Source: Candidatus Omnitrophota bacterium (lineage in GTDB: Bacteria > Omnitrophota > Gorgyraeia > Zapsychrales > JAHFFX01). Taken from it: DNA of 64,000 bases. A program made the position numbers and the translations under genes. The notes below the pieces were generated by a model that saw only the letters and a program-made list of their open reading frames with translations, did no database searches and was not told the origin of the DNA. The stretch covers positions 19,921 to 83,920 of the forward strand of contig JAHFFW010000004.1 in NCBI GenBank assembly GCA_023247725.1. Direction: 5' to 3'. The first letter of the stretch is position 1. Each line of letters begins with the position of its first letter. This document shows, one piece after another, positions 1,288 through 17,784 of this stretch.

Positions 1288-1298
1288 GCTCAACGTCT

Positions 1299-2270
1299 AT
1301 GGCGGAAAAATTATTAACCCATTCGCTTAAAAAAGATTTATTGGCCCAGATGATCCGCATCCGCCAGCTCGAGGAAAAGATTGTGGAGGTTTACGGCGAA
1401 GGCCACATGCGCACGCCTTCGCACCTTTCGATCGGACAGGAGGCCGTATCCGTTGGGGTTTGCCAGGTGCTCAAAGAGGGTGATCAAATCTTTGCATCCC
1501 ACCGCTGTCATGCGGCGTTTTTGGCCAGGGGCGGAACGACCGAAAGTTTTTTTGCCGAATTATGCGGCCGAGCCGCCGGCAGCAATAACGGTCGCGGCGG
1601 TTCGGCCCATTTGGCCTTTGCTTCGGGGGGAATGTATGCATCTCCTATTCTGGGCGCGATGATTCCCGTCGCTGTCGGCGCGGCTTTGGCTGCGGCCATG
1701 GATCACTCGAAACAGATCTCGGTCGCCTTTTTAGGGGATGCGGCTATTGAAGAAGGCGTCTTTGCCGAAAGCCTCAATTTTGCCATCATCAAAAAGCTTC
1801 CTGTTTTCTTTGTCTGTGAAAACAATCTGTATTCGACCCATGCGCATATCCGCGACCGTCAACCGGCCTGCGCCATTTACCGTCGGGTGGCCGGGCAGGG
1901 GATTGCAACCAAACAGCTCGACGGCAATGATGTGGAAAAGGTTTATACCAGTGCGCTCGCCGCAATACAGGCCTGCCGCAGGGGCACGGGGCCGGTTTTT
2001 TTGGAATATCTGACCTATCGCTATCGGGAGCACGTTGGTCCTTTGTATGATTACGACAAGGGGTACCGCACGAAAAAGGAAGTGGAGGCTTGGCAAAAAA
2101 AATGCCCGATTGAAGCTTATCGAAAAAAATTGATTAGACAGAAAATATCGACGGAACAAGAATTTATCAGACTACAACAACAATTTTCACAAGAAGCCGA
2201 ACGAGCTTATCGGAAGGCCTTAGAAAGTCCATTCCCCGAGCCGGCCACCCTTTTGGATCACGTTTATTAG
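1299..2270 (+). CDS. ThDP-dependent 2-oxoacid dehydrogenase E1 alpha-subunit homolog (PDH/acetoin-DH E1-alpha-like)
   Basis: SIGQEAVSVG and FLGDAAIEEG (GDG ThDP-binding) motifs. The track ORF begins at 1239, but the ATG at 1299 lies just after the upstream stop. Confidence 0.8.
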   Translation: MAEKLLTHSLKKDLLAQMIRIRQLEEKIVEVYGEGHMRTPSHLSIGQEAVSVGVCQVLKEGDQIFASHRCHAAFLARGGTTESFFAELCGRAAGSNNGRGGSAHLAFASGGMYASPILGAMIPVAVGAALAAAMDHSKQISVAFLGDAAIEEGVFAESLNFAIIKKLPVFFVCENNLYSTHAHIRDRQPACAIYRRVAGQGIATKQLDGNDVEKVYTSALAAIQACRRGTGPVFLEYLTYRYREHVGPLYDYDKGYRTKKEVEAWQKKCPIEAYRKKLIRQKISTEQEFIRLQQQFSQEAERAYRKALESPFPEPATLLDHVY

Positions 2271-2278: not shown

Positions 2279-3058
2279 ATGCCCCAAGCCCCCCAAATTG
2301 AATGGCACGAACAATGGAGCCTGTTCAGAAAGCCAGAGATTCCTTTCCTTTTTGAGGAATGGATTTTTCCTAATAAACTGGAGGATTTTAGGGGTAAATC
2401 GGTTTTGGAATGCGGCTGCGGGGGAGGACAACACACCGCCTTAATGGCTCCGTTTGCCAATAAAATCGTCGCGGTTGATCTCAATACGATCGATCTGGCC
2501 AAAGATCTCAATCGTGATGCCCAGAATATAGTTTTTCGGCAAGAAAATATCCTGGATATGAATTTAGGCGAAGAGTTTGACATTGTGCTTTCGATCGGTG
2601 TGATCCACCACACGGATCATCCGGAAAAAGCCGTTGAAAACCTAAAAAGGCACCTTTCCAGAGGCGGCAGGATTATATTGTGGGTTTATAGTCAAAAGGG
2701 AAACTTCCTGATGAAGCATTTGGTTGAACCAGCGAGAAGGCTTATCTTTAAAAAATTAAGTCGGAGAAACCTAAAATTTTTTTCCCAAGGGATCACCTTA
2801 CTACTGTATGTGCCGGTTTATTCCCTTTATCTTTTCCCTTTGCCTTTCTTGCCTTATTTTGGATATTTTAAAAATTTTAGAAGATTACCTTTTTATCGTA
2901 ATACCTTGAACATTTTTGATAAACTCAATGCGCCTCAGGTCGATTTTATTAGCAAGAAGCGAATTCAAACATGGTTTAGTGAAGCCGAATTTAAAGATAT
3001 CCATGTGAGTCCTTATGTTGGCGTCAGCTGGAGAATCAGCGCCACCAGAAAAATTTAA
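2279..3058 (+). CDS. Class I SAM-dependent methyltransferase
   Basis: VLECGCGGG glycine-rich SAM motif I followed by acidic motif II (VAVDL); hydrophobic C-terminus. Confidence 0.75.
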   Translation: MPQAPQIEWHEQWSLFRKPEIPFLFEEWIFPNKLEDFRGKSVLECGCGGGQHTALMAPFANKIVAVDLNTIDLAKDLNRDAQNIVFRQENILDMNLGEEFDIVLSIGVIHHTDHPEKAVENLKRHLSRGGRIILWVYSQKGNFLMKHLVEPARRLIFKKLSRRNLKFFSQGITLLLYVPVYSLYLFPLPFLPYFGYFKNFRRLPFYRNTLNIFDKLNAPQVDFISKKRIQTWFSEAEFKDIHVSPYVGVSWRISATRKI

Positions 3059-5823
3059 TGTCCGTCCTCATTCACTCCTATTACGGCAAATTCAAATCTT
3101 CATCCAGCCTAAAATCCTGCCTGTTTATTCTGTTGTCAGCGACGGTGTCTTATGTGGTGATGGGCTTTGTCTATCCTGAGCTTTTGTTTCGGCATGAATT
3201 GAGTTTCCTTTGGCAAAACGACGGCGGCATTCTCAAGGAGAGCCTTTTCACGTTCGTGTCTAATGCTCTTCACGGCGGTGTTCAGCTGTGGAATCGCTAC
3301 GATGAGATGAATTATGCCTATCTGTATCTCAGTCATGGAATTCAAACACTGGTCAACATCTTGACGGGTTGGACGTACCTATTGTTGTCGCCTTTTTTCG
3401 CCGAGCCGGGAAAGGCCCTGCATATTTTTTATTGCAGCGTTTTTCATTTCTTTCTCATCCTGATTCGGACTGCCGGCGGGTATCTGCTGCTGAGAAAATT
3501 TCGTTGCCATCCTTTGGTGATCTTTGTATCCTTGCTCATCCTCAATACCCTTTTGACCAGCCATATGTACGTGGGCTACACCCCGTCTAATCTATACAGT
3601 TATTTTTTGCTGCTGGCTTATTTTCTGTTGCGCTTCTTTGACCGTTTTCATTTGAAAGATTTCTTATGTTCCTTGCTGGTGATGGCGATGGCTTGCGCCA
3701 ATTCTTTATTATTGGCCTTAGGGTATTTTTATCAGGTCGTGCATTTTTTTATGGTTGGATGTTTTGTATTCAATTTTGGCCAGTTCAAGGCCACCATGAG
3801 CAAATTCAAACAGGGTTTCACCCAATCCAACTTATGGCGGGTCCTGGGCGTCCTGTCGGTGTGCATTCTTCTCACGCTGCCTTGTTTATACTTGGCCCGG
3901 TCTTTAAAAAAGGATTTTTACATTCCGAATTCCGGACTGGGGGATACCAAAGGGAGGATGAAGATGGGATTGAATCCTTTGGAATATTTTAAGCCCGCCG
4001 GGAAATCCTTTGCCAATCCCTGGGACTGGCCGGTTAAAGCCGTGGATTTTGAACACAACGACTGGGCGGGGTCCTGGTTATTTCTGGGGGCCAGTGTGTT
4101 ATGGTTTTCCTTGATCGGTCTTGTCTTCTCAAAACATCGGGAAAAACATATCTTTCTTTGGTCCGCGATTGGTATTCTCTCGGTGAATTTTCCGCAAGAC
4201 CCCCATTCATTTTTTTCCCTTGGCCATTGGCTCAACGCCTTAACGAATCCTTTTCGGTTTTTGCTGCGAAGTTTTCACATGTCGAGTTTACTCATGCCCT
4301 TGTTGTTCTTTCCGTTGGTCGCCTTCGGATTACAGGCCTTAAAGGAATTACTGAGTCAAAATTCTGAATCAACTTATGCGGATCGGGTTCCGGTCGCCAT
4401 GGTCACTGTCATGGCGATCGTCGTTGCCTTTAGCTTTTTGCTCCCCTTTACCGCAAAGGTCCATACGATCCTGAGCGGAATCATCTTCTTGGCGATCTTG
4501 GTCTTCATCCACCATCGACCCCTGATCACGGCGCAAAAGCCATTTTTAAAAATTTTAAACACGAATCTGATTTTGGTTTTTTTGATTATCTCGACGGTCG
4601 CAGTGGACTTAAAGGCCCTTTGTATTTATATGCACCAGGAGTATTATCAAGGCCGAACGTTAACCCCTATGCATTACGTCGGTTTAGATGATCCCGACCC
4701 CGTTCTCCTGGAATACCAAAATCCGTTCCTCTTGCCGTTCCGGGAGTATTATTCCTTCAGCAAAAAAGACGTGAAGCCCTTTGCCATCTTTCAAATAGGA
4801 AATCTTTTTTACCAAGAGCATTCCGCAAAGGGCCTGGTCGCCTATGGGCTTTTGATCGGTTGTCCGGGACTTTTTTTCCAGTACACGCCCTTGGAAAGAT
4901 ATACCCGCACGGTTATGATTTATAACCCCTTTCATTGGTCTTACCGAAATATTTATGATGATCCCGAAATCGAAGAATACCTCGCTCGGGATAAACGATT
5001 CCTGTATCTAGCCGATTATGCCATCGATGCTGAACATGGTAGCCTCGGTGAAATCCTGAATCGGAATTTGGATAGAAAGGTGATCCTGGTCGAAGGCCAG
5101 GGGGGGGAACGATGGGTCAAGCATTTGCAAAACCTGGCCGATTTAAGTCAAAACATGTTGAAGGGTCCGGAAGAAGAACCGGTTTATCGGTCCTGGGAGT
5201 TTCCTTTTTCGCCATCCCGCGTTCGGCAGCAGGGCGATTTTAAAAAATACATTTTTGACCTGCCAAAGGATTTTCCGTCGTACCTTTCGACCACTATTTT
5301 TACTGATGATCGGCTTAGCTGGCAGTTAAAGATCGGCGATCATGAACTCCTTCCCGTGCAAGGAAGTCTTAACCCTTGGACGTTCGATGTTCAAAATGTT
5401 CGGCAGGGCAAGCTAGCGATTCTTCTTCCTAAGGATTTTAATACTTCGGGGATAACCGCTATGCTGAAGGTCAAATTGCCAGAGGGAATATCTGATATTT
5501 GGCGCAATGCCTACGATGATTTTGGGTTCAACTACCGGGCGCCGCGTGACGGATGGTTGGTCGTGCATTATCCATTCGATTCTAAATGGAGTTTATCCGT
5601 CGATGGAAAACCCTCGCCAATTGCTAAAGTCAACGGGTACTTTATCGGGACCCCCCTCTCCAAAGGGGAACACAGAATTCTTTTGCGTTACTGGCCCGGT
5701 ACGCCTTTGCGGATCATGATTTTTATTTCGATCATCCTAACGGTCCTCGTCTTTTTTGGTTTGATCATTAAGGGGATTCGTTGGGAGAATGACTTGTTAA
5801 GGGAAGCCATTATCCGTCGATGA
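3058..5823 (+). CDS. YfhO-like / GT-C-like polytopic membrane glycosyltransferase candidate
   Basis: About 450 aa of multi-TM N-terminal region, a soluble domain and a C-terminal TM. The C-terminal segment (WLVVHYPFDSKWSLSVDGKPSPIAKVNGYFIGTPLSKGEHRILLRYWPG + TM) resembles the conserved YfhO C-terminus and that of ORF 25851. ATG overlaps the upstream stop (TAATG). Confidence 0.5.
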   Translation: MSVLIHSYYGKFKSSSSLKSCLFILLSATVSYVVMGFVYPELLFRHELSFLWQNDGGILKESLFTFVSNALHGGVQLWNRYDEMNYAYLYLSHGIQTLVNILTGWTYLLLSPFFAEPGKALHIFYCSVFHFFLILIRTAGGYLLLRKFRCHPLVIFVSLLILNTLLTSHMYVGYTPSNLYSYFLLLAYFLLRFFDRFHLKDFLCSLLVMAMACANSLLLALGYFYQVVHFFMVGCFVFNFGQFKATMSKFKQGFTQSNLWRVLGVLSVCILLTLPCLYLARSLKKDFYIPNSGLGDTKGRMKMGLNPLEYFKPAGKSFANPWDWPVKAVDFEHNDWAGSWLFLGASVLWFSLIGLVFSKHREKHIFLWSAIGILSVNFPQDPHSFFSLGHWLNALTNPFRFLLRSFHMSSLLMPLLFFPLVAFGLQALKELLSQNSESTYADRVPVAMVTVMAIVVAFSFLLPFTAKVHTILSGIIFLAILVFIHHRPLITAQKPFLKILNTNLILVFLIISTVAVDLKALCIYMHQEYYQGRTLTPMHYVGLDDPDPVLLEYQNPFLLPFREYYSFSKKDVKPFAIFQIGNLFYQEHSAKGLVAYGLLIGCPGLFFQYTPLERYTRTVMIYNPFHWSYRNIYDDPEIEEYLARDKRFLYLADYAIDAEHGSLGEILNRNLDRKVILVEGQGGERWVKHLQNLADLSQNMLKGPEEEPVYRSWEFPFSPSRVRQQGDFKKYIFDLPKDFPSYLSTTIFTDDRLSWQLKIGDHELLPVQGSLNPWTFDVQNVRQGKLAILLPKDFNTSGITAMLKVKLPEGISDIWRNAYDDFGFNYRAPRDGWLVVHYPFDSKWSLSVDGKPSPIAKVNGYFIGTPLSKGEHRILLRYWPGTPLRIMIFISIILTVLVFFGLIIKGIRWENDLLREAIIRR

Positions 5824-7223
5824 ATAGTTCTTACGATTACTGTGTAGTAGGCGCCGGACCCAGCGGATTAACCGCGGCCTACCAGTTGCTTAAGGCCGGA
5901 CATTCTGTGATTCTTTTGGAGCGGGACAGCCGAATCGGCGGCCTGGCCAAAAGTTATAACTATGACGGTCATGTTTTTGACACGGGACCGAAGCGTTTCC
6001 ATACCGAGGACCCCATCGTTCTTGATTTTATTAAGGAAATCATCCAGGATTCCGTCCTGCAGATTTCCCGCTCGACGGAGGTTTATTTCCTTAAGAAATA
6101 TTTCGAATGGCCTTTGAAAACCCGCGAGTTGTTCAAAATGCCCTGGCCGGTCATTGGGCGTTGCGCCGTTGATTTGATCAAAGCGAAAAAAATACAGGAT
6201 CCTCATTCCTTCCGGGAATTTATCATCTCCAAATATGGTCCAACTCTGTACGAAATCTTTTTCGCTCCTTACACGGGAAAGTTCCTGCGCTGGGATCCTA
6301 AGGATATTCATTCCGACTGGGCTTCGACGGGAATCAACCGGACGGTCATCGACAAACGGATCAAAACCAACACCTTATTGGATATTCTCAAGGTCCTCGT
6401 TTTGCCCGAGAAGGTCGACACGCATTTTCTTTATCCCATGCAAGGAGGATTCGGCGGGTTTTATGAGCGCCTGCTCGCGCGGTGTCAAGAGTATCCGCAG
6501 TTTTCGCTTTTGCTCAATAACTCCGTCGGCCAATTGACGAAGGAGGAGGAGAGCTTGGGCATTCGGACCAAAGACGGAAAATCCATTTCTTGCACTCACC
6601 TCATCTGGAGCGGAAACCTCAATTATTTGGCCAATCTTATTGCTTCGCAGCAGAATGTCCACTACCTCAATACGATTTTTTATAATTTGATCTGCCGTCA
6701 GGAGGGGATCAGTCATCAGCGTTCGCAGTGGATTTACGTCAGCCGCGGCGACAGCTTGATCAGCCGCATCACGTGTATGAAAGAATTTGCTCCCTACACC
6801 TGCAAAAATGGCTACTATAACGTGATCTGTGAATTGACCGATTCGCAGGCAAAACCTTTTTATTTTCTTAATCCCGAACGGTATAAAGACAAAATCCTGG
6901 AGGAACTCAAAGGCATGGCCTTCTTAAAAGATTCCCGGTTTGTTGAAGGCGTTCAGATCAATCCTGTCGTTGATACGTATCCGGTTTACCACCGTCACTA
7001 CACCCGGGATTTTGCCTCGATCGCCGGTCAGGTGAAGAAATTTTCTCCCCGGATTCATCTCTTAGGCCGTTGCGGGGCCTTCTGGTATAATAATTCCGAT
7101 CATTCCATTCGGTTTGCAATTGAGCTGACCCATAAATTGCTGGGCAAAAAAGAACAGGAATTTGCCTACCGGGATTATTTTGGCGGAACCAGCCTCCGCG
7201 CCGCTCATCCCCAAGGAGAATAA
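5820..7223 (+). CDS. FAD-dependent oxidoreductase, UDP-galactopyranose-mutase-like / amine-oxidase-like
   Basis: N-terminal YDYCVVGAGPSGLTAA dinucleotide-binding motif, IGGLAKSY and DTGPKRFHT motifs resembling Glf. Confidence 0.55.
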   Translation: MNSSYDYCVVGAGPSGLTAAYQLLKAGHSVILLERDSRIGGLAKSYNYDGHVFDTGPKRFHTEDPIVLDFIKEIIQDSVLQISRSTEVYFLKKYFEWPLKTRELFKMPWPVIGRCAVDLIKAKKIQDPHSFREFIISKYGPTLYEIFFAPYTGKFLRWDPKDIHSDWASTGINRTVIDKRIKTNTLLDILKVLVLPEKVDTHFLYPMQGGFGGFYERLLARCQEYPQFSLLLNNSVGQLTKEEESLGIRTKDGKSISCTHLIWSGNLNYLANLIASQQNVHYLNTIFYNLICRQEGISHQRSQWIYVSRGDSLISRITCMKEFAPYTCKNGYYNVICELTDSQAKPFYFLNPERYKDKILEELKGMAFLKDSRFVEGVQINPVVDTYPVYHRHYTRDFASIAGQVKKFSPRIHLLGRCGAFWYNNSDHSIRFAIELTHKLLGKKEQEFAYRDYFGGTSLRAAHPQGE

Positions 7224-7261: not shown

Positions 7262-7460
7262 TACATTGAAGTCAGCCCTTCGACTTCGCTCAGGGTTGAT
7301 GCTAATAGGGAAGTCGAAGCATCAACCCTTCGATGCTCCCTGGCCTGAAAGGCCGTCTCTCGCACCCCGGGGGTGAGAGACGGGCATAAAGATCCTCTCA
7401 CCCCCGGGGTGCGAGGGTGGGCTATCGCCGGTAACGGCGGGCCGGGGAAGCGTCAAGGCC
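7262..7460. repeat. Cluster of consecutive inverted repeats/hairpins in the intergenic region (possible structured RNA or REP-like element)
   Basis: GGGTTGATGCT-N15-AGCATCAACCC (perfect 11-bp arms), GGCCTGAAAGGCC, a CCGTCTCTCGCACCCCGGGGGTGAGAGACGG hairpin of about 15 bp, and CGCCGGTAACGGCG with a GTAA loop. The 19-nt core CTCGCACCCCGGGGGTGAG recurs as its reverse complement 17 nt downstream. Confidence 0.6.
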
Positions 7461-7482
7461 TTTATTCGTAAGGATCAGATCA

Positions 7483-8991
7483 ATGAACATTCTTTTTATT
7501 CAAAATAATGGGATCCAGGAATCCGTCGGCGTTGCCAATCTCTCCGGTATGCTCAAGGCTTATGGGCATAAAACCGATCTCTTATTGACCTCCCACACGC
7601 CCAATTTAGAGAAGGCGATTTCCGAATTTGGTCCGCATCTCATTGCCCTTTCCGGCTTGACGGGCGTCCATCATTCCCTGACCTCATTGGCCCAAAGAAT
7701 CAAAACGAAATTCCCCATTCCTGTCGTGATGGGGGGACCGCATCCAACTTACTCTCCGGAGGTCATTGAACACCCGGGCATTGATTTTATTTGCCGGGGA
7801 GAAGGCGAGCACGCGATGCTGGAATTGGCCAATAGCTTAGAAGCCGATCGCGATGTGACCAAAATCCAAAACCTTTGGGTCAAAACCAAGGAGGGAACGA
7901 TCCACAAAAATGACATGCGGGCTCCGGCTGTCTTGGATGAATTGCCTTTTTCCGACCGGGAGATGTATTACAAGTATCCTTTTTTGCGGGACGTGCCGAT
8001 GAAACGGTTCATCGCCAGCATGGGCTGTCCTTATCCTTGTACCTTTTGCCATGAACCGGTTATCCGCGGAATGTACCGCGGCAAAGGCAATTATGTCCGG
8101 CGCAAATCCGTGGCCCGCGCCATCGCTGAGATCAAATACATCCAGGACCGCTACCCTCTCAAACATGTGCATTTTTCCGACGATCTATTTTTTATCCGCA
8201 ATGCCTATGAATGGCTCGAAGAATTCGCCGAGGTTTATCCCAAAGAAATTGGCCTGCCCTTTTCCTGCAACATCCGTTATGATTCCGTCGTTGAGCACTC
8301 GGCGAATCTGCTCAAAAAAGCCGGCGCTTATGGCGTCGCCATCGGGCTCGAATCCGGCAGCGAACAACTGCGCCAGGTCGTCATTAAGAAAATGGTGAAG
8401 AATGAGCATATGGTCGAAGGGGCAAGATTGCTGCGGGAACGCGGCATTAAGATGCTCACGACCAATATGATTGGCCTGCCCGGAGAAACGCTGGATCAGG
8501 CCTTTGAAACGGTGGAGCTCAACATGAAGCTCAAATCGAACTTCACCCGGGCGAATACCTTTTTGCTTTTTCCAGGATTGCCCATGGTGGATTACGCCAT
8601 GCGCAATGGTTTTGTGGATCCCAACTTCGATATTCAAAAGCATGTGGCCGAGGCGACGGAGATTAACCTCAAGACCCCCTTTGCCAAGGAATTTCGTAAT
8701 CTCGCGTCCTTATTCTGGGTTTTTGTCAAATTCCCTCCCCCATTCATTCCGCTCTTTAAAAAAATCGTGCGCTGGCCGGATAATGTTTTCTTTCGCATGA
8801 TTGGCTCGATGAATATGATCCAGGAACTGTTGTTTTACCGGATCCGCCCCATTTCGGGATTCAAATTTTTTAAAAACACGGTCCTGATCTCCAAAGAGAT
8901 GACCTTGCGCAACATCCCCAGCTTGTTTAAGCCGAAGAAAATCTCGCCCGAAGAGAAACTTATTTTTGATAGCGACCGAGGATATTTATAG
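7483..8991 (+). CDS. B12-binding-domain radical SAM enzyme (class B radical SAM)
   Basis: N-terminal B12-binding-like domain (ILFIQNNGIQ...VVMGGPHPT) and CPYPCTFC CxxxCxxC radical SAM cluster motif. Confidence 0.8.
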   Translation: MNILFIQNNGIQESVGVANLSGMLKAYGHKTDLLLTSHTPNLEKAISEFGPHLIALSGLTGVHHSLTSLAQRIKTKFPIPVVMGGPHPTYSPEVIEHPGIDFICRGEGEHAMLELANSLEADRDVTKIQNLWVKTKEGTIHKNDMRAPAVLDELPFSDREMYYKYPFLRDVPMKRFIASMGCPYPCTFCHEPVIRGMYRGKGNYVRRKSVARAIAEIKYIQDRYPLKHVHFSDDLFFIRNAYEWLEEFAEVYPKEIGLPFSCNIRYDSVVEHSANLLKKAGAYGVAIGLESGSEQLRQVVIKKMVKNEHMVEGARLLRERGIKMLTTNMIGLPGETLDQAFETVELNMKLKSNFTRANTFLLFPGLPMVDYAMRNGFVDPNFDIQKHVAEATEINLKTPFAKEFRNLASLFWVFVKFPPPFIPLFKKIVRWPDNVFFRMIGSMNMIQELLFYRIRPISGFKFFKNTVLISKEMTLRNIPSLFKPKKISPEEKLIFDSDRGYL

Positions 8992-9036
8992 GTCTTGCTC
9001 ACGTTTTATCGATAACGAGCCTAAGCCGGCCGACCG

Positions 9037-11076
9037 ATGAAAAAACGTCTCATTTATCTTGCGGATTTGACCCATACCGGAGCGGGCATTGCCTCCAACG
9101 TTTTTCCTCTGGCCATCGGGCTTGTGGCTTCTTATGTTCAAGAAATTTACCAAGAAAAGTACGGAATTGAGCTTTTCAAATATCCCGATGACTTGAATCA
9201 AGCCTTGAAAAGGGAAACCCCGGATATCGTCGGATTCTCCAATTACTCGTGGAATTGCCATTTGTCCTATCAATTCGCGAAAGCGATCAAGGAACAATTT
9301 CCGCAAACGATCGTTGTCTTTGGCGGGCCGAATTATGGATTGACGGATCCGGAAGTTCGAGAGTTTTGGTCCCGTTTCCCGCGGTTGGATTTCTACCTGG
9401 TCAAAGAGGGCGAACTGGCATTCGTAAAATTGCTCGAGCAGCTGGAGCGTTATGGTTTTGATGCCCCGGCGTTAAAGAACTCTGACGAATGCATTTCGAA
9501 TGCCCATTATGTCGGTGAGAACGGGTTGACGAAAGGTGAGGTCCTGCCGCGGCTCGCCGATTTGCAGGTTTTGGGATCGCCTTACTTAAAGGGGTTCATG
9601 GACAAATTTTTTGACTCGGTCCTCATCCCCATGATTCATACGACCAGAGGCTGCCCCTTTACGTGCACCTTCTGCACCGAAGGCAATCTCTATTACAATA
9701 AGGTCGCCCAGCGCCTGGATCTTAAGGAGGAATTGGAATACATTGCCCAACGAAGAAAAGGAGTGCAGGATTTACTGATCACCGACGCGAATTTTGGCAT
9801 GTACGCCGAAGACATCGCCAAGGCTCAGGTGATCCACAAGGTTCAGGAGAAATATGATTGGCCTCGTCGGATCATTGTTTCGACGGGAAAAAATAAAAAG
9901 GAACGGATTATTGAAGTCGCCTCGATCGTTGGGGGGGCCTTGAGTTTCGCGGCCTCTTTACAATCGACCAACAAGGAAATCCTCAAAAATATCAGCCGGC
10001 AGAATATTTCTTTGGAGGTGCTCAACGAGATTGTGGAAAAAGCCCAGCATATCGGAACGACCACTTATACAGAATTGATTTTGTGCCTTCCCGGAGATAC
10101 GCTTCAAACCCATCTGCAGAGTTTAAAAGATGTCGTCGATTCCAATCTGGACAACATCCGCATGTATCAGCTGATCTTGCTACCCCAGACCGAGATGAAT
10201 ACTCCGCAAAGCCGGCAAATTTATGGATTCATCACCAAATTCCGCATTAATCCGCGCAGTTTCGGAAGGTATGAAGTCCTCAATCGAAACGTTGCTTCTA
10301 TTGAAAGCGAAGAGATTGTTGTCGCCAACAACACGTTGTCGGCGGGAGATTACCTGATGTGCCGGGAGATGGATTTTACCGTTGAGGTGGTCCACAATAC
10401 CCAGCTTTTTACAGAACTCTGTGGCCTTTGCAAATATTTTAGGATCTCATGGTTCGATTTTCTTTTGCGATTTTACCAGAAGGCGCGGCAACCGAATTCG
10501 GGACTCCAGGAACTTTACGACACCTTTAAAACGGACACCCTCAGAGGCCTTTGGGCTTCCTGGCAAGTGTTGGAAGAAGCCTCGGAATCCCTGATCGATG
10601 GTCTACTCTTTGATAGCGAGGGCACCAATGAAATGGCCAAAGGCAAGGCGCTGGCGTTTTTTCGGTATTTTTCGCAAATCAATGAACTGGTTTCCGGGGA
10701 GTTTAAAACATACCTCGACGATCAAAGGTTGGGGAATGGGTGTTTGGCGCTTTATCTGGAACAGTTGAAACAGTTGAATTATGCCAGAAAACAAGACTTT
10801 CTTGAGATCACGTCGCAAAGAAAAGCCTTGTCCCTAAATTTTGATTTCGAGCAATTGGCGCGATGCAACTACCGCGCCGATCCGCAGACTTATTTTAGTG
10901 CCCAACCGCTGATGCTCGAGATTTACCATGATCATCGCCAGATTGAAAAAATCGACGCTTACGTTCAACAATATGGCAAGAAGGTCGATGGTCTGGGTCG
11001 AATCATGATGCGGGCACCCGTTGGGAAGTTATTTAGGACCATGAAGACCAGAACATATTCCCTCAGTCGTGGATAA
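9037..11076 (+). CDS. B12-binding-domain radical SAM enzyme (second, longer paralog type)
   Basis: VVFGGPNY B12-domain-like region and GCPFTCTFCTEG CxxxCxxC motif; about 680 aa with a long C-terminal extension. Confidence 0.8.
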   Translation: MKKRLIYLADLTHTGAGIASNVFPLAIGLVASYVQEIYQEKYGIELFKYPDDLNQALKRETPDIVGFSNYSWNCHLSYQFAKAIKEQFPQTIVVFGGPNYGLTDPEVREFWSRFPRLDFYLVKEGELAFVKLLEQLERYGFDAPALKNSDECISNAHYVGENGLTKGEVLPRLADLQVLGSPYLKGFMDKFFDSVLIPMIHTTRGCPFTCTFCTEGNLYYNKVAQRLDLKEELEYIAQRRKGVQDLLITDANFGMYAEDIAKAQVIHKVQEKYDWPRRIIVSTGKNKKERIIEVASIVGGALSFAASLQSTNKEILKNISRQNISLEVLNEIVEKAQHIGTTTYTELILCLPGDTLQTHLQSLKDVVDSNLDNIRMYQLILLPQTEMNTPQSRQIYGFITKFRINPRSFGRYEVLNRNVASIESEEIVVANNTLSAGDYLMCREMDFTVEVVHNTQLFTELCGLCKYFRISWFDFLLRFYQKARQPNSGLQELYDTFKTDTLRGLWASWQVLEEASESLIDGLLFDSEGTNEMAKGKALAFFRYFSQINELVSGEFKTYLDDQRLGNGCLALYLEQLKQLNYARKQDFLEITSQRKALSLNFDFEQLARCNYRADPQTYFSAQPLMLEIYHDHRQIEKIDAYVQQYGKKVDGLGRIMMRAPVGKLFRTMKTRTYSLSRG

Positions 11077-11887
11077 AGGATTGAAGGGCAAGCGAATTCT
11101 TGTGCTGGGCGCGGCCAATGGCATAGGGCGAAGCCTCGCCTTGGATTTGGCCCGCCGTAAGGCCGATCTTTTTTTATTGGATATTGATAAAAAATTGACT
11201 GTCTTTTGTCAACGGCTCAACCGATACACTCGCTGCCAGGGCTATGTCTGCGATTTGGCGGATCACGCTCAGGTTGCGGACCGTCTGGTTTTTTTGCTGG
11301 CGAAAGGGGGACTGGATGGAATCGTTTATGTCGTTCGCGGTCGGCAAAAATATCCTTATTCCGACCTGGATGAGAAGAAGTGGAAAAAAGATCTGGGCCT
11401 GACCGTGGAGGCCATCCTTTACATCATCCAGCGGTTGTGGAAAGAAAAGAAAATCAATTCTTATGCGAGCATTGTGCTTTTGTCCTCTGTTTTGTCACAG
11501 TATGCGGGAGCCGAAAGCATTTCTTATCATATGTCGAAGTCGGCTCTGGAGTCGATGTGCCGGTACCTGACGGTCGAAATGGGAATTCATCACATCCGCA
11601 CAAATATTTTACAGCTTGGCCATTTTGTAAAGGATGAATTTAAGGAACGGTTCTATTCAAAAGAGAATACGGCCTATCGGTTTTGGCTGGAACGGGTCCA
11701 GCCTTTACGACGCGTGGGGCATAATGTCGACGCGGTGGGACCGATCACGTTTCTTTTATCCGATCAATCCGCTTTTATGACCGGTCAGACCATGTGCGTG
11801 GACGGGGGTCTGACGATTCAGGAACCTTCCAAACTTGTTCGGGATTTTTTATTGGAGCCAAGGGTAAAACTTGACGGAAAAAAATAA
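11069..11887 (+). CDS. SDR-family oxidoreductase
   Basis: VLGAANGIGRSLA TGxxxGxG-type motif, YHMSK catalytic YxxxK; start overlaps the upstream gene. Confidence 0.7.
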   Translation: MDKGLKGKRILVLGAANGIGRSLALDLARRKADLFLLDIDKKLTVFCQRLNRYTRCQGYVCDLADHAQVADRLVFLLAKGGLDGIVYVVRGRQKYPYSDLDEKKWKKDLGLTVEAILYIIQRLWKEKKINSYASIVLLSSVLSQYAGAESISYHMSKSALESMCRYLTVEMGIHHIRTNILQLGHFVKDEFKERFYSKENTAYRFWLERVQPLRRVGHNVDAVGPITFLLSDQSAFMTGQTMCVDGGLTIQEPSKLVRDFLLEPRVKLDGKK

Positions 11888-12662
11888 AGTTGTCTTGGTC
11901 ACGGGATCTTCGCAGGGTATCGGTAAGGCCACCGCGCTTTCCTTTTATCGCTCCGGGGACAGAGTTGTTTTTACCGGACGATCCTCCCAGAAAATAAAAA
12001 GGATCAAAAAAGACCTTAAAGATCCAGCGAGGGCTTTCATGCAAACGGCCGATTTGCGTTCTGCCAATTCTTGCCGTCGCCTGGTTGAGAAAATCGTACG
12101 AAAATGGGGCCGGATTGACATCCTGGTCAATAATTGTGGTGGCCTACCTGCCCGGGGTCGATTTCTTGACCTGGCGGAAAAAGCCTGGCGCGATTCTTTT
12201 GAATTGAATTTGTTGACGGCCGTGACGATGTCTCGGCGCGTTATTCCCTTCATGCAAAAGCACGGAGGAGGCCGCATTATCTTTGTTTCCTCATTTGTGG
12301 CGCTTCAGCCCGGGAGTTTTAACCCGCATTATTCGGCGATGAAAATGGCCCTGCTCAATCTGACCAAGCATCTGTCCTTGCAATTTGCCCAGGACAACAT
12401 CCTGGTCAATGCGGTCTTGCCGGGAAACATTCACACCGAAGGCTGGGAAACCTACCTGCTGGATAAATCGCGGCAGGAGCGCCGCGATTTATCCAGCGTG
12501 CAAAATGAAGAACATGAAAGGGTGGTGAAGGCTGTTCCCTTAAAGAGATTTGGCCGGCCGGAAGAAGTGGCTGAATTAATAAGATTTCTTTGCTCTGAGA
12601 CAGGAAGCTTTGTGACCGGCGCAAGTCTCATGATCGATGGAGGAATCCTGAAGGGCGTCTAA
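11871..12662 (+). CDS. SDR-family oxidoreductase (3-oxoacyl-ACP-reductase-like)
   Basis: VLVTGSSQGIGKA, NNCG, YSAMK motifs. Confidence 0.8.
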   Translation: MTEKNKVVLVTGSSQGIGKATALSFYRSGDRVVFTGRSSQKIKRIKKDLKDPARAFMQTADLRSANSCRRLVEKIVRKWGRIDILVNNCGGLPARGRFLDLAEKAWRDSFELNLLTAVTMSRRVIPFMQKHGGGRIIFVSSFVALQPGSFNPHYSAMKMALLNLTKHLSLQFAQDNILVNAVLPGNIHTEGWETYLLDKSRQERRDLSSVQNEEHERVVKAVPLKRFGRPEEVAELIRFLCSETGSFVTGASLMIDGGILKGV

Positions 12663-12715: not shown

Positions 12716-12832
12716 ATGTTTACCCTTGAGGAGTCGAAATTACTCATTCGTTTGATCCGTTATGCCAAATGGCTCATCATCACCCTGATGCTCGCGGGAA
12801 CGGCCGTGTATCTCTGGAAACATTTTGGATGA
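12716..12832 (+). CDS. Small (38 aa) single-TM membrane protein, not in the ORF track
   Basis: ATG at 12716 preceded by GGGAGG 8 nt upstream. Translates to MFTLEESKLLIRLIRYAKWLIITLMLAGTAVYLWKHFG with a hydrophobic helix. Its TGA (12830-32) overlaps the ATG at 12829 of the next SDR (ATGA coupling). Confidence 0.4.
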   Translation: MFTLEESKLLIRLIRYAKWLIITLMLAGTAVYLWKHFG

Positions 12833-13662
12833 ATGTGGGTCAGGATTCTAAAATTGTATTGATCGTCGGCGGTGCGGGAGGCATCGGCAAAAGGACCGCC
12901 GAATTATTATGGGAGCGAGACGATCACCTGATTGTTGCCGATCGGGATCAAAAGCGTTTGGATCAATTCAAAACCCAACATGACCATGCCGATAAAAAAC
13001 TATCTTGCCTGCTTTTTGATTTAACCGTTCCTGCCTCAAGGCAAGAGCTCATTTCATGGATCCGGGAAAAATTTGGAGTTTTGGATGTTTTGGTTGTCAC
13101 CGCAGCGGTTCATTCCACCTTTCCGGTTGAGTTTATGACCGATGAAACGATTGACCGCGTTTTAAATGTCAATCTCAACAGCCACATGAAGCTCGTCCGG
13201 GATTGCCTGCCACTGATTCGTGACGGCGGCAGGATCGTGGGAGTGAGCTCGATCGCCGCTCAAATTGGAATCCCCATGTCTTCGCTGTATTCCGCTTCCA
13301 AAGCCGGATTGGAAATGTTTTATGAATCATTGTCGGTCGAGGTCATGCACCGCCGGATCAAATGCATTGTCATCCAAATCGGAAATGTCAATACCGGGTT
13401 TAATGAAACCGGAAATGATTATCAACCGGTGGGAGACAGATCCATTGACGCCGGATATTCCAGGGTCGTCCGCAAGATTGACAGCCGTTATGGCATGGAT
13501 CCGGCGATCGTTGCTCAAACCATCCTTTCGGCGATGGAATCACGATCGCCGAAATTTTGTTATGTGGTGGGAGCCAATGCCAAAAAAGCGCATTGGGCCA
13601 AACGCCTTTTGGGACGGGACTGGGGCATTCGTTTGACGGCGAAATATTTTGGGTTTAAATAG
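12829..13662 (+). CDS. SDR-family oxidoreductase
   Basis: VLIVGGAGGIGKRTA, YSASK motifs. The track ORF starts at 12769; the ATG at 12829 (MNVGQDSKIV) is a more plausible start. Confidence 0.7.
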   Translation: MNVGQDSKIVLIVGGAGGIGKRTAELLWERDDHLIVADRDQKRLDQFKTQHDHADKKLSCLLFDLTVPASRQELISWIREKFGVLDVLVVTAAVHSTFPVEFMTDETIDRVLNVNLNSHMKLVRDCLPLIRDGGRIVGVSSIAAQIGIPMSSLYSASKAGLEMFYESLSVEVMHRRIKCIVIQIGNVNTGFNETGNDYQPVGDRSIDAGYSRVVRKIDSRYGMDPAIVAQTILSAMESRSPKFCYVVGANAKKAHWAKRLLGRDWGIRLTAKYFGFK

Positions 13663-13678
13663 ATAGGATCATTTTACC

Positions 13679-15586
13679 ATGTGTGGCATCCTCGCGCATG
13701 TCGCCTTCCAGCCGGGAGCAAAAATTTCGCAACCCCATTTAAAGGCCCTCAATGAGCTTCAGTGGCATCGGGGGCCGGATTCCGGCGGCGTTTACCTTCA
13801 GGGACCCGTCGGGCTGGCGGTGCGGCGATTATCCATCATCGATTTGGAAAAAGGGGACCAGCCCATCACCTCGGCGGATGGTCGGTACACGATTGTCTTT
13901 AACGGAGAGATTTATAACCACGACGAGCTGCGCCGGAATTTGCTCAACCAAGGTTATCCCCTCAAAACCCGCAGCGACACCGAAACCCTGCTGTATTCCT
14001 ACATCGATCAGGGACCGGCTTGTTTGAAGTCTTTAAACGGCATGTTTGCCTTTGCCATTTGGGATGAGAATCAACAGCAACTTTTTGTGGCCAGAGACCG
14101 GCTGGGAATCAAGCCGCTTTACTATGCCCAAAACCAAGAACGAATCTTGTTCTCTTCGGAATTGACGCCGATCTATGCGAGCGGTTTTTTTGATTTGCGG
14201 TTCGATCTTAAGGCGATTTCCGACTATTTGGCCTACTGGTATATCTGCGAACCCCGAACCATTTTCCAGGATGTTTATCAATTGACTCCGGGAACTTATG
14301 CCATCCTTGGCGACGGGGAGCTTAAGAAATTCTGCTACTGGCAAGTTCCAGCTGAAAAAGAAGCAGACATCTCGTTTACTTCGGCCCGGGAACAATTGCA
14401 GGCGCTCATCCAGGATTCGGTCAAACTCCGAATGAAGGTGGATGTCCCCATTGGAACCTTTTTAAGCGGCGGCATTGATTCGGGAATCATCACCGCCTTG
14501 GCCGGCCAAGACCGTAAAGAAGAGCTCACGGCGTTTTGTATCGGCTTCCCGCAAGAAACGTATTCCGAGGTCAAGGAAGCGACGCTCACTGCGCGTCGTT
14601 ATGGTGTGAACCTGCGCGTTTGTCAACTCGAGGAGATGACAGCCCAGAGGGTTCAGAAGGTTTTGACTGCCTTCGATGAGCCACTGGGCAATGCCAGTTA
14701 TGTCCCAACTTTTTTTTTGGCGGAAGCGGCGCGAAAGGAATTGAAAGTTGTTTTGACTGGCGACGGTGGAGATGAACTGTTCGGAGGTTATCCCACTTAC
14801 CAGGCACCGTATTACCAAACCATGTATCAGCAGACACCGCGATTTCTCCGGCGGATAGGGAGGGATTTTGTCAACCATCTTCCCGTCTCCCATAACCGGA
14901 TCAGTTTAGATTACCGGCTTAAACAACTGTGGAAAGGTTTGGACCATCCTTTCGACCGGGCGCATTATACCTGGAGAGAAGTGGCTTCGCTTCATCTTCA
15001 GCACCGTTTGTTCCGGCCGGAATACCGGGAAGAATTGGAGGGCTATGATCCTTTTTCCGTTGCCGAGTTCTATTTTAAAAAAGGAAAGGCCTTGAGCGTG
15101 AAAAACCAGCTGATGTATGCGGATCTTCACACTTATTTGCTCAATGATCATCTGCGCAAAATCGACCGGATGACCATGGCGCATTCTTTGGAAGCCCGGC
15201 TTCCATACCTTGATTACCGAATTGTGGAATTGGCCATGCGGATGCCGGCGGATTTTAAAGTCACCTTCCGGCAAACCAAACGGATTCTCAAGGACCTGGC
15301 CAGGGATTATTTGCCGACGAAGATTATCAAAGGCACAAAGAAGGGGCTTACATCCCCGATAGCCCATTGGATTTCTTCTGATTTGAAAAGTTACGTGACC
15401 GAGGAATTGCAGGGAGGATTATTGGCCCAGTTCTTCGATCGAGAATTCATTCAAACCCTGATGGCCGAGCATGCAGAGAAAACATTTGATCATAGCCGGA
15501 CGATCTGGGCCCTGTTGACCTTGCAGGTTTGGGGGAAAAAGTTTCGACTTTTAAGCCGCAGCCTTAAAGAAAAATCATTTGTTTAA
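13679..15586 (+). CDS. asnB: Asparagine synthetase (glutamine-hydrolysing) family amidotransferase
   Basis: N-terminal MCGI nucleophile Cys2, RGPDSGG, SGGIDS PP-loop; about 635 aa. Confidence 0.85.
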   Translation: MCGILAHVAFQPGAKISQPHLKALNELQWHRGPDSGGVYLQGPVGLAVRRLSIIDLEKGDQPITSADGRYTIVFNGEIYNHDELRRNLLNQGYPLKTRSDTETLLYSYIDQGPACLKSLNGMFAFAIWDENQQQLFVARDRLGIKPLYYAQNQERILFSSELTPIYASGFFDLRFDLKAISDYLAYWYICEPRTIFQDVYQLTPGTYAILGDGELKKFCYWQVPAEKEADISFTSAREQLQALIQDSVKLRMKVDVPIGTFLSGGIDSGIITALAGQDRKEELTAFCIGFPQETYSEVKEATLTARRYGVNLRVCQLEEMTAQRVQKVLTAFDEPLGNASYVPTFFLAEAARKELKVVLTGDGGDELFGGYPTYQAPYYQTMYQQTPRFLRRIGRDFVNHLPVSHNRISLDYRLKQLWKGLDHPFDRAHYTWREVASLHLQHRLFRPEYREELEGYDPFSVAEFYFKKGKALSVKNQLMYADLHTYLLNDHLRKIDRMTMAHSLEARLPYLDYRIVELAMRMPADFKVTFRQTKRILKDLARDYLPTKIIKGTKKGLTSPIAHWISSDLKSYVTEELQGGLLAQFFDREFIQTLMAEHAEKTFDHSRTIWALLTLQVWGKKFRLLSRSLKEKSFV

Positions 15587-15603: not shown

Positions 15604-15963
15604 ATGAATCATCGATGGTCGGGATGGGTCGATTTTATGGCAAGATGTTTTATCATCGCGTTCATGGTTTATTTGGCCTTGTCCGCTTTTTTTATTTCGG
15701 ATTTTAAAAAGCTCTCCCGGCTTTTGGATTCGGTGGAAAAAGAAATGCAGACCTTCACTCAGCAGAACAAAATCTATTCGACCTTTTTTACCACTGGAAA
15801 TCCAGAAATCCTTTATGTCATTGCCTTGCAAGATGAACAGAACGGCGATCTCGGTGGGGCCGCAAAGAAACTGTTGACGGCCATTCAAGTTTCGGATTTG
15901 AACAGCCAAAAATACCGCGCGAAGCTACAGGCACTTCTGGGAAAGTCCGGGCAGAATCCCTAA
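15604..15963 (+). CDS. Hypothetical small membrane protein
   Basis: One hydrophobic helix (FIIAFMVYLALSAFFI); no recognisable motif. Confidence 0.4.
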   Translation: MNHRWSGWVDFMARCFIIAFMVYLALSAFFISDFKKLSRLLDSVEKEMQTFTQQNKIYSTFFTTGNPEILYVIALQDEQNGDLGGAAKKLLTAIQVSDLNSQKYRAKLQALLGKSGQNP

Positions 15964-15974
15964 GTCTTCATTCC

Positions 15975-16316
15975 ATGTCATCCAGTTATGACGCGGTGAT
16001 TTCTTCTCTGGTCAAGGGTTTGCTTGATGATCAGGCGAATCCGGTCCTTGTTGAGCAAACCGCCCAACAGATGAGGAAAACTGTTCGACACATGCCGAGG
16101 CATCTGTCCCTGCCCATTATTTTTCTAACCCTTTGTTTTGATTGGGCGGGAATCTTGCGTGGAGGTCGAATCTTTCGATGTCAATCCGCTGTTTCTCAGC
16201 GGGCACAGATTGAAGATTGGAAAAAAAGTTTTTTATCGCCTTGTCGGGAGTTGATCCGTTTTCATGAAAAAATGAGCGGATTTATCTATTACTCCTATTC
16301 CCCGACGAAGAATTGA
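15975..16316 (+). CDS. Hypothetical protein
   Basis: ORF of 113 aa in an operon gap upstream of the GMC oxidoreductase; no motif recognised. Confidence 0.35.
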   Translation: MSSSYDAVISSLVKGLLDDQANPVLVEQTAQQMRKTVRHMPRHLSLPIIFLTLCFDWAGILRGGRIFRCQSAVSQRAQIEDWKKSFLSPCRELIRFHEKMSGFIYYSYSPTKN

Positions 16317-16341: not shown

Positions 16342-17784
16342 ATGCTGCAGAATCGTTTAGATTGTGAGGTGCTCGTCGTCGGTTCCGGACCCGGCGGGGC
16401 CAATACCGCCTATCTATTGGCGCAAGCGGGCAAGGATGTAATCCTTGCCGAAGAAGGGGAGAATTTGACGGTTGAGCAAACCCCGGCCTATTCGCTGGAA
16501 GAAATGAAATCAAAATACCGTCATGGCGGTATGACGGTGGCCTTGGGCAAACCGAGCGTAGCCTATCTCGAGGGCTGCTGTGTCGGCGGAGGCAGTGAGA
16601 TCAATGCCGGTTTATACCACTATCCTTCACCGGAAGTTTTAGAAGAGTGGGTTAAAGATTTTGCTATTCGTGATTTTGGATTTGGGAAGCTGGAGCCTTT
16701 TTTCAAATCCTGTGAGCAAGATATTTCGGTTTCTTCCATGCCTGGTCAGGTGGGCTCAGCCTCTTTGAAGCTGCAGGAAGGAGCCCGCAAGCTCAATTGG
16801 AAAACTGCACAGATCCCTCGCTGCTGGAAATATGAATGTTTATCCGACGGAACCTGGCATTCTTCCCGGCAGTCGATGACCGAAACCATCATCCCCAAGG
16901 CCTTGCGTCATGGCTGCCGATTGCTGACGCGAGCTAAGGTCAAAAGACTTTGTTTGAAAAATCATCGAGCCGATCACGCCTTGGTGAGTTCCGTTACGAA
17001 AGCTGGTGAACAAAGTTTGACCACGATTAATTTTCGCCAGGTTTTCGTCTGTGGGGGCGCCGTGCAAACTCCGGCCCTTTTGAGGCGCAGCGGAATTAAG
17101 AAGAATATTGGCAATTCGCTGCGGATGCACCCGGCCATCCGGATGGTGGCAAAATTTTCCGAAGCAGTCAACGAAGAGCAAGAAGGCGTTCCGGTCGTTC
17201 AGGTGGAAGAATTCAAACCCCGTTTGACCCTGGGTGGATCTTACAGCGCCCTACCGCATCTGGCGTTGTGGTTAGGTCCACAGCGCATACAGAAGCTTCT
17301 TCCGGTTTGGAAAAATTTGGCCATGTTTTATGCGCTCATTGTCGGTCAAGGAGCTGGAACCGTAAGAAATATTCCCTGGACGGATGAGCCCTGGGTTCGC
17401 ATGCCTCTGACCAGGACGGATGCCAGTTCTTTCCGGGAAGGTTTAGAACTCTTGGGCCGTTTGCTATTTGCCGCTGGAGCGACGGAAATATTTCCACCGA
17501 TGCAGGGGTTGGAAATCTTAAAAACCCCAGACGATTTAAAAATATTCTTGGGCAACTTATCTTTGAATAAAATGGATATCTCGACGATTCATTTATTTAG
17601 CAGCTGTCCGATGGGAGAAAAGACAGAACTCTGCGCCGTGGATTCCTACGGAAAATTGCATGGCTTTAAGAATATTTATCTTAATGACGCGAGCATTTTG
17701 CCCAGCGCCCCCAGGGTGAACCCCCAGGCGCTCATCATGGCGATTGCCCGGCGAAATACAGCGAAATTTTTAGAAAATATTTGA
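16342..17784 (+). CDS. GMC-family FAD-dependent oxidoreductase
   Basis: VLVVGSGPGGANTA FAD-binding motif; GMC-like C-terminal region (PQALIMAIARR). Confidence 0.75.
   Translation: MLQNRLDCEVLVVGSGPGGANTAYLLAQAGKDVILAEEGENLTVEQTPAYSLEEMKSKYRHGGMTVALGKPSVAYLEGCCVGGGSEINAGLYHYPSPEVLEEWVKDFAIRDFGFGKLEPFFKSCEQDISVSSMPGQVGSASLKLQEGARKLNWKTAQIPRCWKYECLSDGTWHSSRQSMTETIIPKALRHGCRLLTRAKVKRLCLKNHRADHALVSSVTKAGEQSLTTINFRQVFVCGGAVQTPALLRRSGIKKNIGNSLRMHPAIRMVAKFSEAVNEEQEGVPVVQVEEFKPRLTLGGSYSALPHLALWLGPQRIQKLLPVWKNLAMFYALIVGQGAGTVRNIPWTDEPWVRMPLTRTDASSFREGLELLGRLLFAAGATEIFPPMQGLEILKTPDDLKIFLGNLSLNKMDISTIHLFSSCPMGEKTELCAVDSYGKLHGFKNIYLNDASILPSAPRVNPQALIMAIARRNTAKFLENI

Follow-up and report, generated by a model that had tools for sequence, protein, structure and literature searches.

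Among the B12-binding radical S-adenosylmethionine (SAM) enzymes, TokK, ThnK and CysS are iterative C-methylases and KedN5 is a predicted iterative C-methylase. HpnJ acts on a lipid-linked amino sugar, and AprD3 is the partner of AprD4. In the moenomycin pathway, such a methylase is accompanied by amidotransferases of the AsnB type whose substrate is a lipid-linked uronic acid. Here we describe two neighbouring genes of this kind, rSAM A and rSAM B (A and B in the following), on a 64,000-nt stretch of contig JAHFFW010000004.1 from a Candidatus Omnitrophota bacterium (GCA_023247725.1, positions 19,921 to 83,920 of the forward strand). The whole of this stretch is referred to as the window. An earlier note on the DNA had placed both genes within a glycan cluster, which agrees with our results.

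The B12-dependent radical SAM enzymes comprise more than 80,000 sequences in more than 100 groups, most of them unexplored, and the members that tailor sugars or small hydroxylated units at an unactivated carbon have been listed (PMC12931638). A and B resemble GenK and GenD1/GntE (gentamicin), MoeK5 (moenomycin) and Fom3 in general reaction logic. They differ from these enzymes in being located in primary surface or flagellin glycan loci of non-actinobacterial phyla, not in antibiotic clusters. A and B belong to a known class, the B12-binding radical SAM tailoring enzymes, and represent two uncharacterised subfamilies with conserved partners. Our literature search returned nothing relevant linking radical SAM or cobalamin enzymes with YfhO, O-antigen, capsule, flagellin glycosylation or GMC oxidoreductases.

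A (7483..8991, 502 aa) and B (9037..11076, 679 aa) are both encoded on the plus strand, and the same gene calls were obtained for the two ORFs on the source metagenome contig (ENA ERZ27297570, 95.9 kb). Both proteins exceeded the Pfam cut-offs for the B12-binding (PF02310, 32.1 bits) and Radical_SAM (PF04055, 29.5 bits) domains. A scored 68.4 bits (residues 10-115) and 70.6 bits (residues 179-345), and B scored 39.1 bits (residues 18-132) and 46.4 bits (residues 201-364), with E-values from 1e-10 to 1e-19 that ruled out chance. The [4Fe-4S]/SAM motif of A is CPYPCTFC (C182, C186 and C189; 8026..8049), and the cluster motif of B is CPFTCTFC (C206, C210 and C213; 9652..9675). Family alignments of 25 sequences each were built for A (A1) and for B (A2), and the three cysteines were invariant in both. 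The AlphaFold2 models of A and B contained an N-terminal alpha/beta domain and matched cobalamin-bound structures. By domains and motifs, A and B are members of the B12-binding (class B type) radical SAM superfamily. The description in the earlier note of two neighbouring ORFs with a B12-binding-like domain and these two cysteine motifs was therefore correct, and the failure to match B12-binding profiles that it had allowed for did not occur. Pfam scans of the large ORFs of the window (at least 150 aa) detected no cob, cbi or btu genes, and an Rfam scan of the window detected neither a cobalamin riboswitch nor another RNA family.

On balance, we lean towards the view that A and B are unrelated members of this superfamily, residing in two separate, portable sugar-tailoring modules that are nested in one surface-glycan cluster. 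The two proteins are only 23% identical over 377 columns, so that calling them copies is inaccurate. All ORFs of 127 loci were translated and labelled by the window proteins; 27 of these loci contain an A orthologue. A and B were adjacent in none of the 27 A-orthologue loci and in none of 80 B-family loci, and the latter contained no A orthologue. In the nearest metagenome-assembled genome (MAG), GCA_964464475.1 of the Planctomycetales, an A orthologue with 84% identity is located on contig 13 (locus L005) without B. The B orthologue of the same MAG (65% identity) is located on contig 31 (L124), together with genes for two short-chain dehydrogenases/reductases (SDRs).

Module A consists of a YfhO-like protein, a UDP-galactopyranose mutase (UGM)-like flavoenzyme, A, the SDR named SDR3, an AsnB-type glutamine amidotransferase, a small membrane protein and a GMC-family FAD oxidoreductase. 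In the window, all of these genes are located on the plus strand. The YfhO-like polytopic membrane protein (3058..5823) has 921 aa and about 11 transmembrane (TM) helices, and it is followed by the UGM-like flavoenzyme (5820..7223; Pfam Amino_oxidase and NAD_binding_8). Downstream of A are SDR3 (12769..13662), AsnB (13679..15586; Pfam and NCBIfam), two small single-TM proteins of 119 and 113 aa (15604..16316) and the GMC oxidoreductase (16342..17784; Pfam). The 113-aa protein is kept directly upstream of the GMC gene.

The module was complete or nearly so in the window, in the Planctomycetales MAGs L005, L007 and L031, in L039 (GCA_041486485.1) and in L040 (a Leptospiraceae MAG), and it was partial in L037, an Acidimicrobiia fragment. 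The YfhO-like protein of these loci has about 860-925 aa and the FAD enzyme about 465 aa. In L005, L007, L031, L037, L039 and L040, the flavoenzyme was kept beside A, AsnB was 53-62% identical to that of the window, and no B gene stood between A and SDR3/AsnB. AsnB accompanied A in 9 of the 27 loci. The gene order of L005 is ZnADH-E1a-YfhO-FAD-A-SDR3-AsnB, with SDR3 directly after A, and SDR3 was also present in L037, L039 and L040. The GMC gene was found in L007, L031, L037, L039 and L040, and homologues of the 113-aa protein in L007, L031, L039 and L040. The remaining A loci, about 20 in number, kept only A and a large polytopic membrane protein. For most of the A loci examined, a polytopic protein with a length of 480 aa or more and 9-14 predicted TM helices was encoded within about three genes of A.

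The best PDB match of the flavoenzyme was the UDP-galactopyranose mutase 4dsg, aligned over residues 8-448, and this full-length UGM-like alignment argues for a sugar substrate. Orthologues of the 921-aa YfhO-like protein adjoin A in L005, L007, L039, L040 and the Tistlia locus L003. The protein is a putative GT-C-type glycosyltransferase and is presumed to be GT-C-like, with a weak Pfam YfhO match (41.3 bits) confined to its C-terminal part. The combination of A, AsnB and a membrane-linked transferase resembles the moenomycin pathway. In pairing a GMC FAD oxidoreductase with an SDR beside a polytopic protein, module A also resembles the DprE1/DprE2 system for epimerisation of lipid-linked sugars.

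The UGM-like gene and A are separated by a highly structured spacer of 260 nt (7224-7482). It contains inverted repeats at 7278-7329 and 7352-7422 with 28-nt arms that are 89% complementary, and the motif CACCCCGGGGGTGAGAG is confined to this spacer within the window. The spacer could be a terminator/attenuator or a REP-like element.

Module B consists of B followed by SDR1 (11069..11887, plus strand) and SDR2 (11871..12662, plus strand), both SDRs being identified by Pfam. The start of SDR1 overlaps the end of B by 8 nt and SDR2 overlaps SDR1 by 17 nt, which is consistent with co-translation. The order B-SDR1-SDR2 was found in the window, L041 (Leptospira), L042 (Algibacillus agarilyticus), L127 (Catenovulum sediminis), L124 (the Planctomycetales MAG), L125 (GCA_041486485.1) and L126 (a Leptospiraceae MAG). 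Two less specific SDRs adjoin B in L045, L047 and L048. Overall, a B-SDR-SDR arrangement was present in 9 of 15 close orthologue loci and absent from L043, L044, L046, L049, L115 and L123. Two further B12-binding radical SAM genes of other subfamilies were observed in these surroundings. A 667-aa gene is located two genes upstream of the B orthologue in L123 (4179-6182), and in Tistlia L003 a 625-aa gene (7827-9704), accompanied by two SDRs, is oriented divergently to the A orthologue. The latter, which is not an orthologue of B, indicates that the pattern of a B12-binding radical SAM gene plus two SDRs recurs.

A recurrent sugar pathway surrounds the B triad. It includes a SIS_2 (GmhA-like) isomerase, an HldE-like PfkB kinase plus nucleotidyltransferase, an NTP-transferase, two (4,6-)dehydratase/epimerase-type enzymes, a 218-aa methyltransferase and a Methyltransf_21 protein. 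E1-alpha and E1-beta subunits, an acetolactate-synthase-like thiamine diphosphate (ThDP) enzyme and a Zn-dependent alcohol dehydrogenase (Zn-ADH) complete the set. The pathway would build an elaborate, branched activated-sugar donor. In the cultured strains A. agarilyticus (L042) and C. sediminis (L127), B is part of an identical 16-gene operon (approximately positions 1-17900) that ends directly at flagellin and FleQ, and the operon is a probable flagellin-glycosylation island. No GT2 or GT-C-type (YfhO, PMT_2) genes were annotated within the 22-kb loci of these two strains. Most likely, therefore, the product of the pathway is a soluble activated sugar and this is the stage at which B works.

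The arrangement of the window is best described as a mosaic of these modules. Zn-ADH (250..1287; homologues in L041, L042, L043, L126 and L127) and the E1-alpha-type subunit of a ThDP enzyme (1239..2270) are encoded at its start, and the partner E1-beta-type subunit (Transket_pyr plus Transketolase_C by Pfam) is encoded at 17871..18908, all on the plus strand. E1-alpha and E1-beta are adjacent in five other genomes (L040, L041, L042, L125 and L127). In the window, a distance of 15.6 kb separates them, and they bracket module A with the nested B triad. In L124, the triad is located between genes similar to two small proteins of the window, sm171 and sm188, and an orthologue of a second YfhO-like protein, YfhO707. 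The window has sm171-sm188-YfhO707 as a contiguous block at 24803-27974, and the triad stands between A and SDR3. The resulting order in the window is E1a / MT-YfhO-FAD-A / B-SDR1-SDR2 / SDR3-AsnB-sm-sm-GMC / E1b. In GCA_041486485.1 and in the Leptospiraceae MAG GCA_020440835.1, A and B are encoded in one large cluster at a distance of 14-23 kb. Modules A and B thus probably serve one glycan, and not as a tandem pair.

Both families are large. More than 120 clusters (90% level) matched A with 64-84% identity over 99-100% of its length, and the mean column identity of A1 was 75%. Genome matches to A had 63-86% identity (one partial match, 60%) and were distributed in at least seven nominal lineages. 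These included Planctomycetales, Omnitrophota, Oligoflexales, Vicinamibacterales and other Acidobacteriota, Tistlia consotensis (Alphaproteobacteria), Delta- and Betaproteobacteria MAGs and Leptospiraceae. Such conservation points to a constrained, possibly shared substrate of A at the membrane. Beyond the family, the nearest relatives of A had 34-44% identity, and 3,095 representatives were matched at E<=1e-30 among 1.84 billion cluster representatives. The paralogues checked at 34-44% identity were all unnamed, and NCBIfam scans and cluster look-ups gave no names for them. The wider B family had 47-68% identity in the best 120 clusters, with members from Fibrobacterota, Elusimicrobia, Leptospira, Omnitrophica, Chlamydiae, Nitrospina, Binatia, Algibacillus and Catenovulum, and a metagenome scan confirmed at least 352 relatives. 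The earlier note had considered such enzymes rare in cell-surface glycan loci. With thousands of homologues, the sizes of the A and B families indicate that genes for B12-binding radical SAM enzymes of these types occur commonly in the glycan loci of environmental bacteria.

Among the two proteins, B could be placed more closely. Its best NCBIfam match was the KedN5 subfamily (167.8 bits against a cut-off of 700; model positions 16-405 of 624), and phmmer matched it to TokK (143.6 bits, E 7.5e-41) and CysS (112 bits, E 2.3e-31). The AlphaFold2 model of B (pLDDT 88.6) was aligned by Foldseek to TokK with a TM-score of 0.73 and to CysS with about 0.70, over some 700 columns and including the C-terminal helical domain; the next structure was TsrM with 0.44. 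Identity to TokK in the structural alignment was 21%. The downstream cobalamin-binding motif of TokK is A70-x-S72-x-Y74-x-W76, in which the tryptophan lies under the cobalt, and D250-A251-N252 replaces the GGE SAM motif in that enzyme (PMC9204698). By alignment to TokK, the predicted counterpart of the first motif in B is G66-F-S-N-Y70-S-W72 (9232..9252), of which N69, Y70, S71 and W72 were invariant in A2. At the GGE position B has the same D250-A251-N252 as TokK (9784..9792), and these residues were conserved in A2.

B is TokK/CysS-like, and from this homology and the cobalamin and SAM motifs we infer that it is probably a sugar C-methylase. B shares with TokK, ThnK, CysS and KedN5 the three-domain architecture, the full-length fold, the (A/G)xSxYxW motif and DAN. 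It differs in its context, which is a sugar/glycan pathway with two SDRs and not a tethered-antibiotic pathway with an acyl or peptidyl carrier protein. By analogy, SAM would first methylate cob(I)alamin. A second SAM would then be cleaved at the [4Fe-4S] cluster to give a 5'-deoxyadenosyl radical, which would take a hydrogen from an unactivated sugar carbon. The substrate radical would receive the methyl group from methylcobalamin, and repeated rounds would be possible as in TokK and CysS. SDR1 and SDR2 may plausibly oxidise and re-reduce neighbouring positions (keto/hydroxyl redox). The methylation, possibly iterative, that the earlier note had proposed for both enzymes is thus reasonable for B, with its TokK, CysS and KedN5 relatives and retained motifs. 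For A, the sequence cannot support it.

The position of A is less clearly defined. Its NCBIfam matches were around 100 bits (HpnJ 113.5, the ladderane lipid radical SAM model 102, and PhpK), and the A family profile matched PDB sequences weakly, with AprD4 (6fd2) at 65.8 bits, TokK at 45 and MgmA at 42. Foldseek aligned the AlphaFold2 model of A (pLDDT 80) to TsrM, MgmA, AprD4, OxsB, CysS and TokK alike with TM-scores of 0.61-0.67, and no one closest structure stood out. When the C-terminal helices of A were tested by hydropathy for a membrane anchor, the maximum was 1.48, which is under the threshold. Three elements of A were invariant in A1, namely A55-x-S57-x-L59 at the position of the MetH GxSxL motif, G84-G85 and the beta1-loop Q7-N-N-G-I-Q-E-S14. 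The first two belong to the candidate cobalamin-contact elements A55-L-S57-G-L59 and G84-G85-P-H87 (7645..7743; motif roles, PMC9204698), and the loop (nt 7501-7524) is located upstream of this span. This invariance suggests a functional cofactor site, and A may use cobalamin.

Some sources name A as BchE or YgiQ, and these names were dropped since the scores were far under the cut-offs. HpnJ, BchE and HpnR equivalogs were likewise rejected (113.5 against 577.6 bits, 78.1 against 481 and 45.1 against 650, respectively), and no hopanoid or bacteriochlorophyll genes were found in the flanks of A. A shares the domain layout of HpnJ, BchE and HpnR/HpnP and is not an orthologue of any of them. The earlier concern that the proteins might be BchE/HpnP-type enzymes was accordingly set aside, all NCBIfam scores being far under cut-off.

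C-methylation was judged, tentatively, the likeliest radical step of A. In module A, the UGM-like enzyme would change the ring form of a sugar, GMC and SDR3 would oxidise and reduce it, AsnB would amidate a carboxylate and A would contribute one radical step. The sugar would then be passed to the adjacent polytopic membrane transferase.

Another possibility is that A is an AprD4-like radical 1,2-diol dehydratase with SDR3 as its AprD3-like reductase, so that its Rossmann domain would hold no cobalamin and the reaction would be a sugar deoxygenation. AprD4 tops the PDB sequence matches of the A profile, within the radical SAM core, and ranks among the best folds (TMq 0.65, TMt 0.71), and the SDR gene directly after A in the nearest relative L005 repeats the AprD4/AprD3 order. 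AprD4 has a Rossmann-like domain without cobalamin (PMC12931638), whereas the B12-binding-type domain of A is strongly conserved, well over the Pfam cut-off, with AxSxL, GG and QNNGIQES invariant. Moreover, A scored 67.6 bits against the NCBIfam AprD4 model, again in the radical SAM core only, where the cut-off is 500, and A has no adjacent SDR in L007 and L031. We consider a diol dehydratase unlikely.

That A rearranges a lipid-linked sugar, or contracts its ring, with the help of cobalamin, as in HpnJ or OxsB, appears a little less likely again. HpnJ was the best NCBIfam match both for A and for its closest paralogues (113-137 bits), and the partners of A include membrane transferases and a ring-contracting UGM-like enzyme. 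The score of A is nevertheless far below the HpnJ cut-off, several unrelated models score nearly alike, and hopanoid genes are missing nearby.

The proposal that A and B are duplicated methylases forming a functional tandem pair, which would carry out dual or iterative C-methylation of the same sugar or lipid with the three SDRs and AsnB serving both, corresponds to the reading in the earlier note. It is improbable in the light of the comparative data. The two genes are indeed adjacent on the same strand with a spacing of 46 nt, and three lineages (the window, GCA_041486485.1 and Leptospiraceae GCA_020440835.1) combine the two modules within one large cluster, which makes the same final glycan possible. 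However, the low identity, the different subfamilies, the confinement of the adjacency to this contig and the separate contigs in the nearest MAG are all contrary to a pair. The neighbours were reported correctly as three SDR genes (11069-13662) and an AsnB-type gene (13679-15586), but they do not form one set, since SDR1 and SDR2 travel with B and SDR3 and AsnB with A.

It is very improbable that A modifies a membrane lipid, such as a membrane-spanning or branched one, by methylation or cyclisation, as GrsA/B or Gmm do, and lies near glycan genes by chance. In favour of this reading, archaeal tetraethers are substrates of B12-binding radical SAM enzymes, and Acidobacteria and Planctomycetes have related lipid genes (PMC11214058). 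The majority of A orthologues come from Vicinamibacterales, in loci that include LPG_synthase_TM, CofD-like, DedA and glycerol-3-phosphate-oxidase-like genes, and A matches the ladderane lipid model. Against it, A is surrounded in the window and in six other loci by genes for a UGM-like enzyme, AsnB, GMC, an SDR and a YfhO-like transferase, the acidobacterial A loci contain GT2 genes as well, and no tes, mss or grs homologues were recognised in the A flanks, where no specific search was made for them. As an observation in its own right, L009, L038 and other Vicinamibacterales A loci encode a 665-685-aa CofD-domain protein with LPG_synthase_TM, DedA, GT2s and a glycerol-3-phosphate-oxidase-like enzyme, an unusual gene set that would fit a phospho-linked glycolipid or a teichoic-acid-like polymer.

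Several points weigh against the reading of A and B as enzymes of two cobalamin-dependent sugar-tailoring modules. Some proteins of the same domain layout, AprD4 and ArsL, have a Rossmann-like domain and yet bind no cobalamin, and sequence does not separate methylating from non-methylating B12-binding radical SAM enzymes (PMC12931638). AprD4 itself is the best PDB sequence match of A. No member of the A or B family has been characterised, so that all of the chemistry proposed here is by analogy. For B, the KedN5 score (168 against 700 bits) and the 21% identity to TokK leave the methylase function, and especially iterativity, unsecured. TokK and CysS act on pantetheine-tethered substrates and no carrier protein is encoded near B; carrier-protein, nonribosomal peptide synthetase, polyketide synthase and beta-lactam genes were found neither in the window nor in eight Pfam-annotated orthologue loci. 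The acidobacterial membrane proteins beside A (family c1) could not be linked to the YfhO-like 921-aa family by profile comparison (hhalign probability below 1%) and had only a weak Chlor_Arch_YYY match in Pfam and NCBIfam, and they are therefore not claimed as GT-C. Acidobacterial A loci with CofD-like, LPG_synthase_TM and glycerol-3-phosphate-oxidase-like genes fit a lipid pathway as well. Finally, GC content and GC content at third codon positions did not differ between the B triad and its neighbours, so that composition gives no indication that the triad was inserted recently.

The two-module arrangement can also be compared with three-component periplasmic glycosylation, in which a GT2, a flippase and a GT-C protein (YfhO, GtrC, ArnT) act together. 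The window contains cassettes of GT2, small protein and YfhO-like genes, and in the nearest MAG GCA_964464475.1 the B triad lies inside such a cassette. The Alteromonadales B pathway differs in lying beside flagellin, with no GT2 or GT-C genes annotated in the 22-kb loci. We know of no radical SAM enzyme among the described three-component or DprE systems. A and B define two large conserved groups in surface or flagellin glycan pathways, each with fixed partner genes, and cultured carriers are available in C. sediminis and A. agarilyticus for B and in T. consotensis for A. Should B act on a sugar in the way that TokK and CysS methylate their own substrates, alkyl-branched sugars, so far not sought, would be present in bacterial glycans. 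If the substrate of A is shared at the membrane, A would offer an entry to the function of the adjacent unannotated polytopic GT-C-like proteins.

Taken together, A and B might bring chemistry undescribed for surface or flagellar glycans, implying widespread, unrecognised alkyl-branched or rearranged sugars; this joint proposal is a doubtful one. B would be a TokK-type iterative methylase turning methyl or methoxy groups into ethyl, isopropyl or tert-butyl groups on an activated, possibly heptose-derived sugar. A would be a near-invariant cobalamin enzyme performing a radical C-C or C-H step on a sugar bound for a GT-C-type transferase. If true, such sugars would occur in Planctomycetota, Acidobacteriota, Leptospiraceae and marine Gammaproteobacteria.

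The surrounding cluster extends beyond the window on one side. Upstream of window position 1, the contig encodes a radical SAM protein (297 aa, partial, from the 10-kb flank), an epimerase, a 218-aa methyltransferase and a faint heptosyltransferase-like protein, so that the cluster starts before the window. Within the window, the glycan cluster stops near 37.8 kb and is followed by ApbE, glycogen metabolism genes, thyA, folA and others. The segment 19622-23343 encodes a TylC3-type NDP-hexose C-methyltransferase (Methyltransf_13/23), an SDR and a transketolase split into N and C halves in separate genes. It is a second, SAM-dependent route to branched sugars within the same cluster.

The window also contains repeated cassettes of a GT2, a small membrane protein and a YfhO-like gene. 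In both of the paired small proteins sm171 and sm188 (171 and 188 aa; 24803-25897), three TM helices at the N-terminus precede a soluble C-terminal domain, and neither protein had a Pfam or NCBIfam match. Small proteins that are homologous or similar in size to them, likewise without Pfam or NCBIfam match, were observed near the B triad, GT2 genes and large membrane proteins in L041, L124, L125, L126 and Tistlia L003. Together, sm171 and sm188 may be a novel flippase or adaptor pair.

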